Virus record (IMG/VR): IMGVR_UViG_3300042992_000089
DNA length: 54,488 nucleotides
Direction: 5' to 3' (one strand)
Source: a virus
Lineage: Duplodnaviria > Heunggongvirae > Uroviricota > Caudoviricetes
Shown here piece by piece: positions 2-17,265 of the stretch (position 1 is the stretch's first letter; each line of letters begins with the position of its first letter). The notes beneath the pieces are model-generated. The model saw nothing but the letters and a program-made list of their open reading frames with translations, made no database searches and was not told the DNA's origin. Made by a program: the position numbers and the translations under genes.

Positions 2-913
2 CAGAAAGCTAGATTGTTACAACAAGAAAAAACAGGAACTCCTGTTGTATTGTTTAATGATGGAGAGAAGATAGCTCATGAGTTTACAGATAAACTACCC
101 ATATCTAACTTTCCTCTAAAGAACTCAGACCTAAAAGAAGCACCTATAGTTATATATGAATTCCCTATAGATAATCCACCTTATGGATTGTATGTAGCAG
201 GAGTCGATCCATATAGACAAGGTAAGTCTGCATATTCAACTTCACTTGGATCTGTATACATCTATAAAAGGATGCATGAAATTAGTGGTGAGAAATATCA
301 AGATATGTTCGTAGCTTCGTATTGTGCAAGACCTGATAAGAAAGAAACTTGGGAAGAACAAGCTAGACTTCTTATAAAGTATTATAATGCACGAGCTCTT
401 TGTGAGAATGATGATATATCCTTTATTGAATATATGAAGAGTAAAGGAGATGCTCATTATCTAGAAAAACAACCTGAATGGTTAAAGGAGATTGTACCAA
501 ACACCACTGTAAAAAGAGACTATGGTATACATCGTTCAGCTGCAAAGATAATTGACTATCTTCACACTTGTTTAAAGAAGTATATGGAAGCTGCAATCTT
601 TAAAGAAACAAATGAAGCAGGTGAAGTGATAAGAGAAGTGCTAGGTGTAAGTAAGATATTTGATCCTGTATTACTTGAAGAAATCATTCAATACAATGAT
701 CAAGGAAACTTTGATAGAATTGTAGCTGCAGAGTTAGCCATAGCACAGGCTTTAAAGATGGACCCAATTATGGGTAGGATAGGTGGAACATCAGATGAGA
801 GAGTTGCTTCTATGTTTAAGAAGAAGAGAGGAAACATACTCTTCACTGATTCTAGAAACAACATGTTTGGACAAACAAAAAATAAATATAAACGCAATAA
901 ATTGTTTTCATAA
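2..913 (+). CDS. terL: Terminase large subunit, C-terminal nuclease part (5'-truncated by window edge)
   Basis: Frame is open from position 2 (QKARLLQQ...), so the TTG at 14 is not the true start. RNase H-like motif YVAGVDPY and C-terminal FDRIVAAELA; stop overlaps the portal start (TAATG). Confidence 0.85.
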   Translation, partial: QKARLLQQEKTGTPVVLFNDGEKIAHEFTDKLPISNFPLKNSDLKEAPIVIYEFPIDNPPYGLYVAGVDPYRQGKSAYSTSLGSVYIYKRMHEISGEKYQDMFVASYCARPDKKETWEEQARLLIKYYNARALCENDDISFIEYMKSKGDAHYLEKQPEWLKEIVPNTTVKRDYGIHRSAAKIIDYLHTCLKKYMEAAIFKETNEAGEVIREVLGVSKIFDPVLLEEIIQYNDQGNFDRIVAAELAIAQALKMDPIMGRIGGTSDERVASMFKKKRGNILFTDSRNNMFGQTKNKYKRNKLFS

Positions 914-3495
914 TGGCAATTATAAGATACACGAAAGACGCAACTATAAGATATGCTTATCTGAATATCTTCCCTGATCAGTTTAAAACTGAGAAGGAAA
1001 AGATGGATGAGAGCTGGATAAAGAATTCAATGGATTACTTTGCCAATAAGGCATATGCTGAATATGTTAAAGCTAGAGATACATTTGTAAAGAACTATGA
1101 TCTTGTAAAGGGTATTTTAAGAAGAGAGGATTTCTTTGTAGAACCAGAAGTAAGAAGCTTCACAGATGTGCTTACAGCAGATCTTGAACTTCCTGCCTAT
1201 GTAAAACATTATTCTATAATGACCACTCCTATTAATGAATTAGTGGGAGAGATTAGTAAAAGACCTGATGCATTTCGTGTCAAAGCATTTGATGATGATA
1301 GTAAGTCTGAAGAGTTAGAATTTAAAACTCAACTATTACAAGACTACGTTGTTTCTCAAGCACAAAGAAAGATATTAGAAAAAGCTTCATTTGATGGAGT
1401 GGAGATTACAGATGAGGAGTTACAAGAGAAAACATTACAACAAGTAAAAGATGAACTTGACAATTATACATCTGTAGCAGAGAAATGGGCAAACCACGTA
1501 TTGACTGCTGAGAAAGCTGAGTTTGTATTAAAGGAGAAATCTGAAGATGCATTTAGAGATCTTTTAATTTCTTCTAGAGAGTTCTTCCATGTATACGAGG
1601 ACAATTCTAAAACTGGTTTTAACATTGAGGTAGCTAACCCTAAAAACACTTGGTTCTTAACTACTCCTGATAGAAAATATATTTCAGATCCTACAGGTAG
1701 AAATCAAGGAGCATATGCTGCTGGTACTGTACAGGTATTAGAACTATCTGAGATTATTGAATCAGTTCCTGACTTAACTAAAGATGAGATTGATCACTTA
1801 CGTAGTTCATTACAAGACTATGGATTAATCAATGTACGTGAATCTAACTTAGGTAATCCTAATGCTGTTCCAGGTAATGACTCTATTCAATATGATACAT
1901 ACGATCCTCTTGTTCTACAAACTAGAATGATTATTGAGTCTGAGATGAAAGAAAATAATGATGGTCTTAAAGACTTCTTAGGACTTACATCTAATGTAAG
2001 CTCATTTGGTTATAAGTATGTGGTGGTAAGAGCATATTGGATTAGTAAAAAGAAGATTGGTAAAGTTATATATACAGATGAGATGGGCAACGAACAGTCT
2101 ATGTTAGTTGATGAAGACTATAAGTCTAATAATATTCCTACACAAATTTCATTAGAGTGGGGATGGATTAACCAATGGTACCAAGGTATTAAGATTGGTC
2201 CAGACATCTATCATATTAAACCTTATAAGTTATTACCTTATTGCCCAATCATTGGACAAACATTTGAAGTTAAGAACACAGAAGCTAAGAGCTTAGTGGA
2301 TATGATGAAGCCTTTCCAAGTAATTTATAATGTTTGTATGAATCAACTTTATAAGTTATTAGAGAAAGAAGTAGGTAAGGTGCAGTTAATGTCTATTCGA
2401 CATATTCCTATTCCTAAGGATGGTGATGCTCAAGATGCATTAGATATCTGGGAAATGGAAGCACGTAATAGAGGTGTAGTATTTGTTGATGATAGTCCTG
2501 AGAACTTAAAGAGTCCATCTAGCTTCAACCAATTTACAAGTCTTGACCTTACACGTACACAGGAAATCCAAGCAAGATATACTCTAGCACAACAAATAAA
2601 GAATGAGTGCTGGGAATTAATTGGTATGTCAAGACAAAGACTTGGATCTGTACAAGCTAGTGAATCAGCTACAGGTACTAATGCAGCTATTACACAATCT
2701 TACGCTCAGACAGAACCTTTATTTGTAGCTCATGAATATGTACTAGGTCAATTGTATCAAGCAATTGTTGACGCAGCTTTATATATAGAAAGTGCTAAAC
2801 CACAATCTACTATTTCTTATATTACTAATGAAGGAGAATCTGCGTTTGTTTCTGTAAATGGTACAGATTTACGTTTCAGAGATCTTAAAGTATTCTTAAC
2901 TAATAGACCAGAAGACAGACAAATGTTTAGTGAGATTAGAGGATTATCTCAAGCTGTCATCCAAAATGGTGGTAGCTTACATGATGTGATTGAGCTTTAC
3001 AGTACTAACTCAATGAGACAAATGAAGCAAGTCTTTAAGAAGTTGAAAGATAGACAAGAAGCTTTACAGAATGCTCAGTTACAACAAAAACAACAAGAAC
3101 TTGAGCAACAACAACAACAAGCTCAAGCTCAAATTCAATTAGCTCAACAACAATCTGAAGAGAAAATAGCTAATGAAAACTACCAAGCAGAGCTTGATAG
3201 AATCAACAAGAAAGAGATTGCTCTTATTGCAGCTGAATCTAAAGCAGGTCCTTTATCAGATATTGACGCAAGTGGTACCCCTGATGTTTTAGAAATAGAT
3301 AAACTAGCCCTAGCTCAATCAAAAGCTGAAAGAGACTATCAGGCTAAGATGATGGATGTACAAAGTAAAAATCAATTAGCTTCTCAAAAACTAGAAATAG
3401 AAAGAGAGAAGTTAAAGATAGCTAGAGAAAACCAAGCAAATGATTTAGCTGTGGCCAAGGAGAATGCCAAGGGCAGAGCTAAGAAAACTAAATAA
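913..3495 (+). CDS. Portal protein
   Basis: 860 aa directly after terL; long Q-rich C-terminal coiled coil (AQLQQKQQELEQQQQQAQAQ); size and terL-portal-scaffold-MCP order match crAss-like phages. Confidence 0.85.
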   Translation: MAIIRYTKDATIRYAYLNIFPDQFKTEKEKMDESWIKNSMDYFANKAYAEYVKARDTFVKNYDLVKGILRREDFFVEPEVRSFTDVLTADLELPAYVKHYSIMTTPINELVGEISKRPDAFRVKAFDDDSKSEELEFKTQLLQDYVVSQAQRKILEKASFDGVEITDEELQEKTLQQVKDELDNYTSVAEKWANHVLTAEKAEFVLKEKSEDAFRDLLISSREFFHVYEDNSKTGFNIEVANPKNTWFLTTPDRKYISDPTGRNQGAYAAGTVQVLELSEIIESVPDLTKDEIDHLRSSLQDYGLINVRESNLGNPNAVPGNDSIQYDTYDPLVLQTRMIIESEMKENNDGLKDFLGLTSNVSSFGYKYVVVRAYWISKKKIGKVIYTDEMGNEQSMLVDEDYKSNNIPTQISLEWGWINQWYQGIKIGPDIYHIKPYKLLPYCPIIGQTFEVKNTEAKSLVDMMKPFQVIYNVCMNQLYKLLEKEVGKVQLMSIRHIPIPKDGDAQDALDIWEMEARNRGVVFVDDSPENLKSPSSFNQFTSLDLTRTQEIQARYTLAQQIKNECWELIGMSRQRLGSVQASESATGTNAAITQSYAQTEPLFVAHEYVLGQLYQAIVDAALYIESAKPQSTISYITNEGESAFVSVNGTDLRFRDLKVFLTNRPEDRQMFSEIRGLSQAVIQNGGSLHDVIELYSTNSMRQMKQVFKKLKDRQEALQNAQLQQKQQELEQQQQQAQAQIQLAQQQSEEKIANENYQAELDRINKKEIALIAAESKAGPLSDIDASGTPDVLEIDKLALAQSKAERDYQAKMMDVQSKNQLASQKLEIEREKLKIARENQANDLAVAKENAKGRAKKTK

Positions 3496-4086: not shown

Positions 4087-4117
4087 TTTGCTGTTAATTT
4101 AACTTGATATACTTTTA
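4087..4117 (+). promoter_or_regulatory. Putative Bacteroidota sigma-A-type promoter (TTTG-N19-TACTTTTA)
   Basis: TTTG 4087-4090, 19-nt spacer, TAnnTTTA 4110-4117 (one mismatch to TAnnTTTG); intergenic, upstream of scaffold/MCP. Confidence 0.5.
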
Positions 4118-4146
4118 CATTGAAAACCAAATAAATACAACTACAT

Positions 4147-5466: not shown

Positions 5467-7020
5467 ATGGCAATTCAAACAATCCCAGGTTTAACTGGTT
5501 TTACCTATGCTAGAGTAGCTTCTATGGACAAGCGTGCTGTAGGTAAATTGACTGACGCAAACCATTTAGAGAGCTTTCACTCAACTGAGCCTGCTGACTA
5601 TGATAAGAAAATCATCAGCTTATACACTCAGAGTTCTCTTTATAGTAATGACTTCTTAGACATGATTAACAAGTCTACTCCTTACTATATTGATAACAAT
5701 AGTGATGCTTGGAAATGGCAAGTGCAAGTACCTTACAAGTTCCCAAAATTTATTGATGTTCCAACTTCTACACAGGAATTAAACAAGCCTGGTATTGATG
5801 GACAAGAGTTTCAAGTAATTGTTGATACTAATGAATTTTCTAAGAACGCAATTATCTCTGTAGGTACACGTCAATATGGTCCTCGTTTTTACGTAGTAAA
5901 AGATCCAGTTCCTTGGAACGTTGGATTCTTATACACTTTCACTTTAGTGAGTGACAACCCAACTGTAGATTTCGTAAGCCCTATCTTCTTGCAAGTGGGT
6001 GTGGAATTAGAGTTAGTTGATGCTGCGATTGGTGAATTCGACCAAGACTTATTAGGTCTTCCTCGTTTAGGTGAGCAAATCACTATGTTTGAATCTTTAG
6101 GTTCTGCATATGGTTATGAGCACAAAATCACTGAGTGGGCTGATGACAAGATGATGAGAGATGCTTCTGGCAAACCTTTAGATATCTTAGTATATGCTCC
6201 TCAAAGACGTAACCAATTACCTTTAACTCGTAACGATGTTAAGTGGGAACCATTTATTGAGTTCTGGATGCGTAAGTCTATGTTAGAATTAAAAGTTAAG
6301 CGTATGATCTGGGCTCGTCCTGGAACTGTAAAAACTAATGGTTCTCAACAAAACTTAAAGCGTACATCTGCTGGTGTATACCACAGAATGCGTAACAATG
6401 GTAACTTAGTACAGTACAACAGAGGTGAGTTCACTGCGAACTTAATTCGTTCTGTATTTGGTGACTTATTCTACAGACGTGTGGATGTTAAAGACAGACG
6501 TGTTAAAATGTACACTAATGAAGCTGGCTTTGACGTATTCCAACAAGCTTTAAAAACAGATGCTTTGAATTCTGGTCTTACTTTCATGGCTGATTCTGGT
6601 AACAGATACATGCAAGGTGAAGGTCAACATATCACTTACAACTTTGCATTCGATGCAATGGTAACTCGTGAGACTGGTCGTGTTGAATTAATTCACTTGA
6701 AAGAATTAGACTTACCTCAAACAAATTTAGAATTTGGACAAAACAAGAAGTCAACTCCAGTATTTATGGTGTTTGATGTATCTCCAATGTCTGATGGTTC
6801 TATGATCAATAATATTCGTGAAGTACGTATGAAGGGTGCACCTTCTATGACTTGGGGTTATATCGATGGTACTCGTCACCACTTAGGCTTTGCTAAGTCT
6901 CAAGGTATGAGTTCTGCGAACAAGTTCCCTGGATATGAGATTTGGATGAAGGATCGTTGTGATGTATTCATTGAAGATTTATCTAGAACAGTATTGATTG
7001 AAGAAATTCCTCAATTCTAA
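5467..7020 (+). CDS. Major capsid protein (crAss-like, HK97 fold expected)
   Basis: 517 aa; position after portal and scaffold; sequence character of crAss-family MCPs (GKLTDANHLES, IWARPGTV, GVYHRMRNNG, FIEDLSRTVLIEE); strongly biased codon use (many CGT, TTA). Confidence 0.9.
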   Translation: MAIQTIPGLTGFTYARVASMDKRAVGKLTDANHLESFHSTEPADYDKKIISLYTQSSLYSNDFLDMINKSTPYYIDNNSDAWKWQVQVPYKFPKFIDVPTSTQELNKPGIDGQEFQVIVDTNEFSKNAIISVGTRQYGPRFYVVKDPVPWNVGFLYTFTLVSDNPTVDFVSPIFLQVGVELELVDAAIGEFDQDLLGLPRLGEQITMFESLGSAYGYEHKITEWADDKMMRDASGKPLDILVYAPQRRNQLPLTRNDVKWEPFIEFWMRKSMLELKVKRMIWARPGTVKTNGSQQNLKRTSAGVYHRMRNNGNLVQYNRGEFTANLIRSVFGDLFYRRVDVKDRRVKMYTNEAGFDVFQQALKTDALNSGLTFMADSGNRYMQGEGQHITYNFAFDAMVTRETGRVELIHLKELDLPQTNLEFGQNKKSTPVFMVFDVSPMSDGSMINNIREVRMKGAPSMTWGYIDGTRHHLGFAKSQGMSSANKFPGYEIWMKDRCDVFIEDLSRTVLIEEIPQF

Positions 7021-7029
7021 TAATGCCCC

Positions 7030-7182
7030 TCTAAGGATAGTATTCTTAGACTGACACCTCTGGTGTTTCGCATAAAAAAATCAGAAGACGTTCCCCCCAC
7101 ATCCCAGTGGGGGAGTCTTCTAACACAGATGGACATGTACAAGTAAATTCTGTACAGTGTTCCCTTCGATGGGAACCATCTG
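7030..7182 (+). ncRNA. Candidate structured RNA element (three hairpins plus a three-way junction) between MCP and the next gene
   Basis: Hairpins 7030-7050, 7053-7067 and 7083-7121 (agaagac/gtcttct with cccccac/gtggggg). Junction: P1 7126-7131/7177-7182, P2 7133-7141/7151-7158, P3 7159-7164/7171-7176. Pairings read by hand; function unknown. Confidence 0.5.
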
Positions 7183-7210
7183 CAAATAAACCAAATAAAA
7201 ACAACTACAT

Positions 7211-8179
7211 ATGGGCAAGATAGGAAAAATATCTACTATTAAAAAAGACTACAACAATTCTCAGTTACAAACAATGCAAGGTGGACTTGCATCAAGAGGC
7301 TACACAAGAATTCCTGGTACAGGAGTTTTTAAATATCCTTATAAAGAATTGGATGGTCAGTACAGAACAGGCTTAGATCCAAAGGCTGCTTACATCAGAA
7401 GAATCTCTGATCCTCTTGAAAGAGAGATGGAGATTGAAAGAGTAACAGAATTAAGAGACAAGCTAGAAGCAGCATTAGGTGGTGTTGACTTAGGTCCTCG
7501 TTCTCAGTTCTGGAACTATGGCTTATCAACTTCTGTTGATGATTCCTTACACGTACAACCTGTTAAGCTTATGGATGGCGACAATTATTATGATTTGTCA
7601 ATGCCATTGCAAGAGCTAGCATTCTCATGGTTGAGAGTTCATCCAACAATTGCTTCTAGCTATCAAGCTTGGGAGCGTGGTGAATTCCCTGCAGACATTC
7701 AATATTATGTTGCAGATGATGAGATTGAAAACAAGGTGATGTTTAAAAAGAAACAACTTATTAATAAAGCTATTGTTAAGTTTGATTCTATGACTCCTGA
7801 GAAGAAGAAGAAAGTGGCTCGTCTACTTGGTCTTCCAGTATCTGATGATTCTAAAGAAGAAGCAGTTTACAATCAGGTGGATAACCTCCTAAAACAAACA
7901 GAATTCAAGAATGGCAAATATCAAGGTTTGAACCCTATAGAAGTGTTCAACAGATTTGCAGATATGAAAGAAAACTTGCTCCATATCAAAGACCTAGTAA
8001 AACAAGCTGTTGCTCATTCAATTTATAGAGTGAGACCTAATGGTAGAGTTTTTGAAGGTGAATTTGAAATAGCAGTTGATGAAGATGATTTAGTTAAATT
8101 CCTTGCAGATGAAGACAACCAAGATCAGTTATTGACTTTGGAAGGCAAATTAAAAGGAAAAAAAATAGCCTCATTATGA
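7211..8179 (+). CDS. Conserved crAss-like virion protein downstream of MCP
   Basis: 322 aa in the conserved post-MCP position; no catalytic motif recognised. Confidence 0.55.
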   Translation: MGKIGKISTIKKDYNNSQLQTMQGGLASRGYTRIPGTGVFKYPYKELDGQYRTGLDPKAAYIRRISDPLEREMEIERVTELRDKLEAALGGVDLGPRSQFWNYGLSTSVDDSLHVQPVKLMDGDNYYDLSMPLQELAFSWLRVHPTIASSYQAWERGEFPADIQYYVADDEIENKVMFKKKQLINKAIVKFDSMTPEKKKKVARLLGLPVSDDSKEEAVYNQVDNLLKQTEFKNGKYQGLNPIEVFNRFADMKENLLHIKDLVKQAVAHSIYRVRPNGRVFEGEFEIAVDEDDLVKFLADEDNQDQLLTLEGKLKGKKIASL

Positions 8180-8933: not shown

Positions 8934-10094
8934 ATGGCTGATTTTTCATTAACCACCCTCTTTGTAGTACCAGTAGGAAACACATTACCTAGCTCTGGAT
9001 CTACACAGAATTTAACAGCTGGTCAAGTAGGTATTTTCCTAAATGACTATAGTGTTGCTACATCTAGTAACATCGCTGATGCCCCTTATTTCTATGTTGC
9101 TCAAGGTAGAACAAACACGTATTTACAAGGCTCTAAGCGTTCAGACAAAATTGCTGGATGTGTAACTGGTGCTGCTTGTAAGTCAAACGTAACTGAATGG
9201 TACAAGTCTAATGGTTGTGCAACTGCTGTAAATCAAGTTACTGATGTAACTGGTTTCACAGTTAAACCTGGTGAGATTGTAACATTAACTTTACGTGGTT
9301 TCTCTAGCTACTTAGAAACATTGTACTTCAATGGTTTCACTCGTTCTGTAACAGTTAATGCTCCATGTCTTGGATGTGGTGACGATCCTTGTACAGATGT
9401 AGATGTGCCTGCATTGATTGATGATCTTATCTATCATTTAGAGTTAGATGCTCCAGGTAACAATCCTGATAACATCACTTTAAATCAATTTTACCAATTC
9501 CAAAGACTTGGTAACAATGCAAATGCGTTCTTACGTATCACTGGTAAACCATTGACTAAATATGGCCAGCCTTGTGACGTTGCTGCATTCCCTTGGGAGT
9601 ATGACAGATTCTACTTCAGAACTTTCATCTTCTCTGGTCCAGCTACAACTGCTGATTTCATTGTTGATGATCCTTGTAACAGAGTTGCTACTCCAGTGAT
9701 TAGACAACGTTCTAACTATCCTGTTGGTACTTCTGCTGAAGTTCAACAATTAGAGAAGAACTTCTATAGCTACCAAGCTGGTTACTTAAAGCATTTATAC
9801 AGAATGGGTGGTTACAACGAGAACTTTGAGTCTTGGGTAACTGATGGTCAAATCTATGATTTGTACTATATCAAATTCAATGAGTATAATAAATCTGAGT
9901 ACCAATGGGGTGACTATATCTATGAAGATAGCACAGTGATTATTGCTGTTCCTAGCAATCAAACAACTGCTATCGAAGCTATATTAGAAGCTGCTTTAGG
10001 AACTGTTGCTGGAGATACATCTTGTATCACTACAACTAGTACTACAACTACTGTATGGCCTAGTACTTCAACAACAACTACTTTGATCCCTTAA
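8934..10094 (+). CDS. Putative auxiliary capsid protein with Thr-rich C-terminal tail
   Basis: 386 aa, beta-rich, MCP-like codon bias, followed by a strong terminator; synteny with the crAss-like auxiliary capsid gene; ends TTTSTTTTVWPSTSTTTTLIP. Confidence 0.55.
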   Translation: MADFSLTTLFVVPVGNTLPSSGSTQNLTAGQVGIFLNDYSVATSSNIADAPYFYVAQGRTNTYLQGSKRSDKIAGCVTGAACKSNVTEWYKSNGCATAVNQVTDVTGFTVKPGEIVTLTLRGFSSYLETLYFNGFTRSVTVNAPCLGCGDDPCTDVDVPALIDDLIYHLELDAPGNNPDNITLNQFYQFQRLGNNANAFLRITGKPLTKYGQPCDVAAFPWEYDRFYFRTFIFSGPATTADFIVDDPCNRVATPVIRQRSNYPVGTSAEVQQLEKNFYSYQAGYLKHLYRMGGYNENFESWVTDGQIYDLYYIKFNEYNKSEYQWGDYIYEDSTVIIAVPSNQTTAIEAILEAALGTVAGDTSCITTTSTTTTVWPSTSTTTTLIP

Positions 10095-10120: not shown

Positions 10121-10163
10121 ATGCCAGAGGGTGAGAGGATATCTCAAATCCTCTGGCATTTTT
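10121..10163 (+). terminator. Rho-independent terminator closing the capsid block
   Basis: 10-bp stem atgccagagg/cctctggcat with inner tgaga/tctca helix, followed by TTTTT. Confidence 0.85.
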
Positions 10164-16460: not shown

Positions 16461-17090
16461 ATGACAGTCTTAGTAACATTAACATTAGCAGGGACAGACG
16501 TAGGTCCCTTTAACCTTTATTCAAATGTAGATGGATATACCACAGCAATAGCAAGTGGTGTATCTAGAGCTGCATTAGTAGCAGGATACAATCTTTTAAA
16601 TGTGCCTGATAATGCTTCTGTTATCAGAGTACAATCTACAGGCACTTGTACAAATTATCTTGATATACTTTTAAGTGGTGCAACAACCACTACAACTAGT
16701 AGCACTTCTACTTCTACAACAACCTCTACAACCACAGCATTTGTTGAATGTATAACTGGTGATAGAAATGCACTCGCTACATGTTCTGGAGGTGAATCTG
16801 CTCCATTCACAGTGACTGCAGGAAATACAGCTCTTATCACTCCTGGTGGATATTACTACTCTGGAACTGGTACAAGAACATATGCATGTTACATTATGGA
16901 TGCTGCAAATACCACAGTTTTATATACGTTCACTTATACTCAGACAAGCATGAGTCCAGGAACTTGGGCATCAACATTACCTTCTAACATCTTATCTGCA
17001 GGTAGCTATCGCTTAAGAACAGATACAGTGAACTGTTTCACTAGCTCTGGTACATTTAGTTTAGTTGCAACTTGCAACACACCTGATTAA
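16461..17090 (+). CDS. Putative decoration protein ('GPF' N-domain, Thr linker, variable head)
   Basis: N-terminal ~70 aa paralogous to 26217 and 26662; linker TTTTTSSTSTSTTTSTTT. Confidence 0.6.
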   Translation: MTVLVTLTLAGTDVGPFNLYSNVDGYTTAIASGVSRAALVAGYNLLNVPDNASVIRVQSTGTCTNYLDILLSGATTTTTSSTSTSTTTSTTTAFVECITGDRNALATCSGGESAPFTVTAGNTALITPGGYYYSGTGTRTYACYIMDAANTTVLYTFTYTQTSMSPGTWASTLPSNILSAGSYRLRTDTVNCFTSSGTFSLVATCNTPD

Positions 17091-17121: not shown

Positions 17122-17151
17122 CCCCTAGGGTTTCTACCCTGGGGGTTTTTT
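17122..17151 (+). terminator. Rho-independent terminator closing the fibre cassette
   Basis: Stem cccctaggg/ccctggggg, loop tttcta, followed by TTTTTTGTTT. Confidence 0.85.
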
Positions 17152-17237: not shown

Positions 17238-17265
17238 CAGTAATTTTAACTAAACTAAACTACAT

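Follow-up and report, generated by a model that had tools for sequence, protein, structure and literature searches.

The question raised by this locus is what a densely folded RNA does between the major capsid protein gene of an abundant, uncultured, crAss-like phage and the gene that follows it. The window, by which we mean the whole stretch of 54,488 nucleotides that was analysed, carries every one of its large open reading frames on the + strand, among them that of a P22-like portal (913-3495) and the capsid gene (5467-7020), whose product matches the Pfam family Crass_capsid (PF23898) with 93.3 bits (cut-off 27) and the major head protein family PHROG 11589 with an E value of 1.4e-32. The window's own phage was represented by near-identical complete IMG/VR records of 114-122 kb, one of which has direct terminal repeats. 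The region had no blastn match among the INPHARED phages, and the sole tblastn match of the capsid protein was to Leptolyngbya phage Lbo-JY46 (26%). Distant capsid relatives among cultured phages have Flavobacterium and Bacteroides as hosts, and two intergenic regions of the window hold TTTG/TAnnTTTA-type boxes, which we take to be the Bacteroidota type of promoter; together, these point to Bacteroidota as the likely host. In the literature on crAss-like phages, we found no description of a post-capsid junction element.

A structured spacer behind the capsid gene

The capsid gene and gene 7211 are separated by a spacer of 190 nt (7021-7210). Its parts and its neighbours are the following:

5467 to 7020, + strand: major capsid protein gene, 517 amino acids, the upstream neighbour of the element
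7023 to 7073, + strand: variable 5' domain, with hairpins at 7030-7050 and 7053-7067, closed by a 4-bp helix (7023-7026/7070-7073)
7083 to 7121, + strand: GC-rich hairpin, with lower stem AGAAGAC/GUCUUCU, upper stem CCCCCAC/GUGGGGG and an asymmetric internal loop
7126 to 7182, + strand: three-way junction of 57 nt, tRNA-like without a D arm
7126 to 7132/7176 to 7182, + strand: P1 of the junction, acceptor-like, 7 bp
7133 to 7160, + strand: P2 of the junction, the variable arm, with a conserved bulged G7157
7161 to 7175, + strand: P3 of the junction, T-arm-like, with pairs 7161-7164/7171-7174 and loop UUCGAU (7165-7170)
7183 to 7210, + strand: A-rich, unstructured leader of gene 7211, 28 nt, CAAAUAAACCAAAUAAAAACAACUACAU, then AUG
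7211 to 8179, + strand: first gene downstream of the element, 322 amino acids, PHROG 16383, of unknown function

The + strand of the spacer folds with a minimum free energy of -57.6 kcal/mol, compared to -36.4 +/- 4.1 kcal/mol for 200 shuffled sequences (z = -5.13), none of which folded as well. Folded alone, the GC-rich hairpin gave a z score of -4.29, the junction one of -3.73 and the 5' double hairpin (7023-7073) one of -2.16. The 5' domain is not conserved; relatives show one or two unrelated hairpins in its place, or none. An earlier note, made from the letters of this DNA, had described a densely structured RNA composed of two small hairpins, a long GC-rich hairpin and a three-way junction. 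All of these are present where it placed them, and the structure is conserved, covarying and on the gene strand. Two details of the junction had to be redrawn: the bulged base of P2 is G7157 and not an A, and the single unpaired G that the note saw at the junction varies with the register, P1 and P3 being drawable as 7+4(5) or as 6+6. The note had recognised no known riboswitch or ribozyme, and Rfam 15 scans of 6500-7700 and 7115-7195 (E <= 10) gave no family match within the spacer.

The GC-rich hairpin has no U-run. Its place is taken by an interrupted pyrimidine tract, UCUUCU, that pairs with AGAAGA upstream, and the tail of the hairpin reads AGUCUUCUAACA, also given as AGUCUUCU. As the earlier note observed, no U-tract follows on the + strand, and 7083-7121 is absent from the calls of the terminator scan, which do include 17122-17145 and 10134-10154. 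These two sites are canonical terminators made of a GC stem and a U-run, lying after gene 16461-17090 and gene 8934-10094, respectively. The idea that a run of seven A at 7074-7080 turns the hairpin into a terminator for antisense transcripts is not supported as a conserved feature: the run is real, but it is limited to the window's own subclade and relatives lack it. In the relatives L110, L138 and L157, the matching hairpin is a canonical stem with a proper U-tract, which precedes the junction, and in crAss001 the capsid gene is followed by a canonical terminator. The resemblance of the window to this intrinsic terminator of crAss001 lies in a GC-rich hairpin directly 3' of the most highly expressed late gene; the difference is that the window has UCUUCU instead of the U-run, and then the tRNA-like junction. 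We propose that hairpin 7083-7121 would serve both as a leaky terminator and as a protector of the 3' end of the capsid mRNA.

The whole spacer could instead be a compound terminator or attenuator, in which the junction adds to pausing or termination behind the capsid gene, a common spot for phage terminators and the one where crAss001 has its canonical one. The stem and U-tract that stand before the junction in L110, L138 and L157 would suit such an arrangement, but no relative has a U-tract after the junction, where the A-rich leader is found instead, canonical terminators exist elsewhere in the genome, and a terminator needs neither a conserved UUCRRU loop nor a bulged G nor an axis of 12-13 layers (see below). 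We consider this explanation very unlikely.

The 5' strand and loop of the hairpin (7091-7117) and of its counterparts in L007, L009 and L193 are rich in C and U, often with CACCUCCU, which in post-capsid hairpin loops resembles the 3' end of 16S rRNA, and the 3' strand is GGAGG- or GGGGAG-like. These 16S-like letters may be a coincidence of a stem built from a C-run and a G-run. An alternative pairing of the hairpin with P1, by way of a CAGAGUG repeated in some hairpin loops, was set aside because it is confined to one subgroup.

Conservation and tRNA-like geometry of the junction

Peptide patterns of the capsid protein matched at least 593 IMG/VR stretches, at least 592 of which were confirmed by tblastn, and the element is found in hundreds of environmental phage contigs. 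From 240 viral loci, to which extra loci from deeper lineages were added, we obtained 138 distinct post-capsid spacers; this survey covers capsid lineages down to about 55% identity and stops above those of 36-50% (P0122-P0133). Scanning viral contigs with P0122 gave no match, and alignment scans of viral and metagenome contigs mostly returned the same clade.

Covariation in the post-capsid spacers of related phages, which the earlier note had named as a check, was found. Realignment of 54 distinct rows with a model of hairpin, junction and leader (R1) left 92.8% of the cells paired, versus 43-53% when the partners were slid, and 32 of the 35 pairs showed compensatory change; none of 500 shuffles, a control that ignores phylogeny, reached the observed values. 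In the hairpin, all 14 pairs showed compensatory change and 90-96% of the cells were paired in this alignment. A second model (R2) consists of the junction only. Over the 81 distinct sequences of the alignment based on it, P2 is 87% and P3 96% paired; this alignment misregisters P1 in sequences in which P1 has 8 bp instead of 7, and the P1 statistics were therefore taken from the R1 alignment. The compensatory variants of P3 include UCCC/GGGA and GAGG/CCUC in different lineages, and P1 occurs as CAGAUGG/CCAUCUG, CAGAGUG/CACUCUG, CAGAGAUG/CAUCUCUG and AGAAUGUU/AACAUUCU. G-U pairs outnumber A-C combinations in the alignment (69 vs 28), and the folded strand is therefore the mRNA strand.

The junction occupies a single, fixed position. 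Of the 138 distinct spacers, 127 contain exactly one R2 match, which is on the + strand and directly behind the capsid gene, and each of five complete genomes likewise has one. The other 11 spacers gave no match at E < 0.01; one of them, L199, matched with filters off. More distant capsid lineages (L161-L163, L246, L321, L325 and L329) still have the hairpin and, behind it, a Y-shaped element whose loop is UUCGAU or UUCAAU; L161 and L162 are closely related to a protein with 63% identity to that of the window. Several lineages, and crAss001, have the hairpin only, with neither junction nor tRNA, showing that the junction is dispensable. Since the junction is absent from both crAss001 and Flavobacterium phage Fpv2, the cultured relatives, no existing laboratory system carries it.

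In tRNA, the acceptor and T stems of 7 and 5 bp add up to 12 bp with a continuous 3' strand, and the other arms depart from the 5' strand at the joint between the two stems. The junction has a matching geometry, a likeness to tRNA that the earlier note did not remark on. P1, linker and P3 make up 12 layers in 39 and 13 layers in 31 of 74 distinct sequences (70 of 74 together), a constraint that could come partly from shared ancestry; the linker from P3 to P1 measures 0-1 nt in 58 of the 74, leaving the 3' strand nearly continuous, and P2 departs from the 5' strand at the P1/P3 joint in the fashion of a tRNA. P2 itself ranges from 11 to 29 nt in length and is hypervariable in sequence, with an unconserved loop. 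The loop of P3, by comparison, reads UUCRRU (among 81 sequences: U 81, U 81, C 78, R 81, A 56 or G 20, U 78), which comes close to the T-loop consensus UUCRA, with one trailing base fewer.

The resemblance stops short of a complete tRNA. A tRNA T-loop has 7 nt (U54-U55-C56-R57-A58-N-N), whereas the P3 loop has 6, and a quarter of the sequences have G instead of A as the fifth base, with which the U54-A58 pair seen in true T-loops would be lost. Set beside tRNA (RF00005, the tRNA-Met of relatives included), the junction shares a 7-bp outer stem that is continuous with a 4-5-bp stem bearing a UUCRR-type loop, and differs in this shorter T-like loop and in having no D arm, D-loop partner, 3' CCA, 7-nt anticodon loop or elbow. 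As regards an elbow mimic formed by pairing of the bulged G with the loop C, the three variants with a C-to-U change in the loop are mini-P2 forms whose alignment is uncertain. ARAGORN called no tRNA gene in the window and, in its relaxed and mitochondrial modes, only overlapping junk on both strands; in G001, a record whose capsid protein is identical to the window's, RF00005 gave no match at E <= 1. The junction is not a tRNA; from its sequence and fold, it looks like a mimic of the tRNA acceptor and T arm.

Beyond the P3 loop, near-invariance is seen at A(-1) (78/81), at the bulged G in P2 (74/81) and in the outer CAGA/UCUG pairs of P1. Together with the loop UUC, the latter two lie in single-stranded or otherwise exposed places and might be contacted by a phage or host protein, in which case the junction would be an uncut operator or insulator that controls the translation or stability of the downstream gene, or that keeps the folding of the terminator off the leader. 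The fixed distance of 28 nt between the end of the element and the ATG would also fit this explanation. We find it rather unlikely, as the element overlaps neither the start codon nor the A-rich leader, no candidate binding protein is known, and protein binding leaves it unexplained that relatives have real tRNA genes beside the junction or instead of it (see below).

Other candidate roles for the junction were rejected. A kissing dimer formed through the UCGA palindrome of the P3 loop is at odds with the common UUCAAU and UUCGGU variants. A phi29-type pRNA would have two conserved intermolecular loops, but the P2 loop is unconserved in sequence and size and the UCGA palindrome is lost in variants. 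The packaging or assembly RNA offered in the earlier note is not supported, for similar reasons: each genome has a single copy, P2 has an unconserved loop and there are no conserved complementary loops. Lastly, a sigma-70 promoter match at 7130-7158 sits in the hypervariable P2, and the total number of such matches is at chance level.

Real tRNA genes in the post-capsid slot

In at least eight of the collected loci, a tRNA-Met gene lies beside the junction or in its stead. ARAGORN places tRNA-Met(CAT) 3-5 nt 3' of the junction in L072, L074, L080, L084 and L096, and in L145, L323 and L328 a tRNA-Met replaces the junction. The record of L072 (G003) is a complete genome of 114 kb with terminal repeats, the only tRNA of which is a tRNA-Met(CAT) at C1:52825-52898; it begins 2 nt after the junction and, with 63.6 bits, is the only sequence above the RF00005 cut-off. 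G001 has no tRNA at all. The tRNA-Met genes of the slot are alike (75% mean column identity) and have the genomic position and orientation of the junction, with the same leader on their 3' side. That of L084 has three G-C pairs in its anticodon stem, an initiator-like trait. At L081:3224-3294, the slot holds a tRNA-shaped gene with a 6-nt anticodon loop, called 'tRNA-???' by ARAGORN, which may stand halfway between decoding tRNAs and a purely structural mimic.

When the slot is scored as junction, tRNA only, both or none, a tree of 149 capsid protein rows requires a minimum of 15 changes of state, several of them forced by well-supported branches. The slot therefore turns over repeatedly, through loss, gain or recombination, and the junction is interchanged with true tRNAs at equivalent sites, in the manner of the t-elements discussed below. 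The occurrence of a real tRNA in the slot of relatives suggests that the mimic probably marks a cut site for the host's tRNA-trimming machinery. Of the roles put forward in the earlier note, processing or stability gains indirect support from these tRNA-Met genes and from the acceptor/T-arm shape of the junction.

The presence of real tRNA-Met in some lineages, the adjoining HNH insertions and the frequent turnover might have been left by a functionless, decaying tRNA pseudogene or by a site of recombination or homing that acts at the DNA level. Compensatory changes, however, preserve all three helices among lineages whose capsid proteins are up to about 40% different; neutral decay would not maintain them, and the excess of G-U over A-C points to RNA. 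We find either form of this explanation scarcely credible.

Another possibility, compatible with processing, is that the junction is a stable small RNA that is released from the late transcript and acts in trans as a tRNA mimic, which could occupy or titrate a factor of the host that binds tRNA (a modification enzyme, for example, or a defence nuclease directed at tRNA). Processing would then be no more than its route of production. P2 is the sole arm able to carry specificity, and its hypervariability in sequence and length, the repeated loss of the element and the want of a known target make this unlikely, even though such an RNA would be well served by a tRNA-like fold, by a conserved T-like loop and by the very high expression to be expected just behind the capsid gene. 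An analogy may also be drawn with mascRNA and with rnaC and rnaD of T4, stable RNAs that sit beside tRNA genes.

Read-through, the leader and a candidate processing mechanism

No promoter-like box is seen in the sequence between the capsid gene and gene 7211, and the latter would therefore have to be reached by read-through from the capsid gene. The junction thus lies between coding regions of the same strand that are not separated by a promoter-like box, which is the placement of a t-element. In 58 of 79 spacers, 26-31 nt separate the end of the junction from the ATG (mode 28), and every relative keeps the sequence of the leader. In spacers with a tRNA, it is the tRNA that the leader adjoins, and the end of the tRNA lies 28-35 nt from the ATG. 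The position of the leader is tied to the last of these elements, be it junction or tRNA. A further copy of it exists in the window:

4124 to 4146 (in 4087 to 4146), + strand: second leader copy, before gene 4147, identical at 22 of 23 positions (one mismatch)

Upstream of this copy there is no junction; there is a promoter-like arrangement of TTTG (4087-4090), 19 nt and TACTTTTA (4110-4117). Gene 17266 has a similar TACCTTTA box and a shorter leader, AAACUACAU-AUG. For genes 4147 and 17266, it is the TAnnTTTA box that ends 28-29 nt before the ATG; for gene 7211, it is the junction that ends 28 nt before it.

The shared leader (AAACCAAAU...AACUACAU directly before the AUG) is found at 4124-4146, 7188-7210 and 17250-17265, and heads genes 4147, 7211 and 17266, each of which opens a transcription or processing unit. 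It may be a signal for translation initiation or stability in a host that does not use Shine-Dalgarno sequences. In L029 (4723-5031), the leader and the next gene are separated by an inserted gene for an HNH homing endonuclease of 102 amino acids (PHROG 2255, E 1.9e-22). L028, L044, L077 and further relatives whose spacers measure about 460-650 nt have the insertion too, and with it come duplicates of the leader and of the first codons (MGK). In Flavobacterium phage Fpv2, the capsid gene is likewise followed directly by an HNH endonuclease gene.

We tentatively propose, with a probability of roughly 0.45, that the spacer is a two-part RNA punctuation module of the late operon, in which the junction is a tRNA-type processing signal. 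In the first part, hairpin 7083-7121 would terminate transcription leakily and shield the capsid mRNA, which is very abundant, at its 3' end. In the second, the junction (7126-7182) would be recognised on read-through transcripts by the host's tRNA-maturation enzymes. RNase P would cut at the 5' edge of the junction, between A7125 and C7126, to yield a capsid mRNA ending in the hairpin, and a 3' endonuclease would cut just after P1, to yield a downstream mRNA with the conserved 28-nt A-rich leader. The 3' cutter might be RNase Z, or an enzyme of the RNase E/G type acting in the AU-rich tail. Cleavage at the 3' edge would give gene 7211 a leader like that of a primary transcript, and the outcome would be that the dosages of the capsid gene and the downstream gene are uncoupled. 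The element is indeed placed where the capsid mRNA could be uncoupled from the downstream genes, as the earlier note suggested in assigning it a role in their stoichiometry. A point against this mechanism is that the first pair of P1 is C-G, with an A at -1; bacterial RNase P prefers G+1 and U-1. It is also possible, though doubtful, that phages employ tRNA punctuation in the way of mitochondria, with a shrunken, non-decoding mimic selected solely as a handle by which RNase P and RNase Z of the host cut and stabilise late mRNAs; the excised 57-nt RNA may in addition act on a host tRNA-binding factor.

The proposed processing signal has counterparts in two known systems. In plant mitochondria, the tRNA-like folds called t-elements coincide with mRNA ends, and true tRNAs serve at other sites (Forner et al. 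2007, PMC1920247). The phage junction resembles these t-elements in combining a non-canonical acceptor-like stem with a T-arm-like hairpin between coding regions. It differs in that t-elements have a full GGTTCRANYCC T-arm motif and mapped transcript ends (PMC1920247), whereas the phage junction has a 6-nt loop and a free stem sequence. The second system is MALAT1, in which a 3' structure stabilises an abundant upstream RNA and precedes a tRNA-like element of about 58 nt, mascRNA, at the 5' edge of which RNase P cleaves (PMC8457004). The likeness is that of a stabilising 3' structure placed directly 5' of a tRNA-like element; the differences are that MALAT1 is a eukaryotic nuclear lncRNA, that its stabiliser is a triple helix and not a hairpin and that mascRNA is a full cloverleaf. 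There is no sequence relationship between the two elements.

The junction is a well-covarying RNA family that is absent from Rfam, and a good candidate for curation. Little is known of how crAss-like phages dose their very unequal late proteins, and a tRNA mimic that stands after the capsid gene and can be swapped with a real tRNA offers a concrete, testable mechanism for such dosage. If our reading is true, the tRNA-processing enzymes of the host would serve these phages as mRNA scissors, as they do in mitochondria and in the case of MALAT1.
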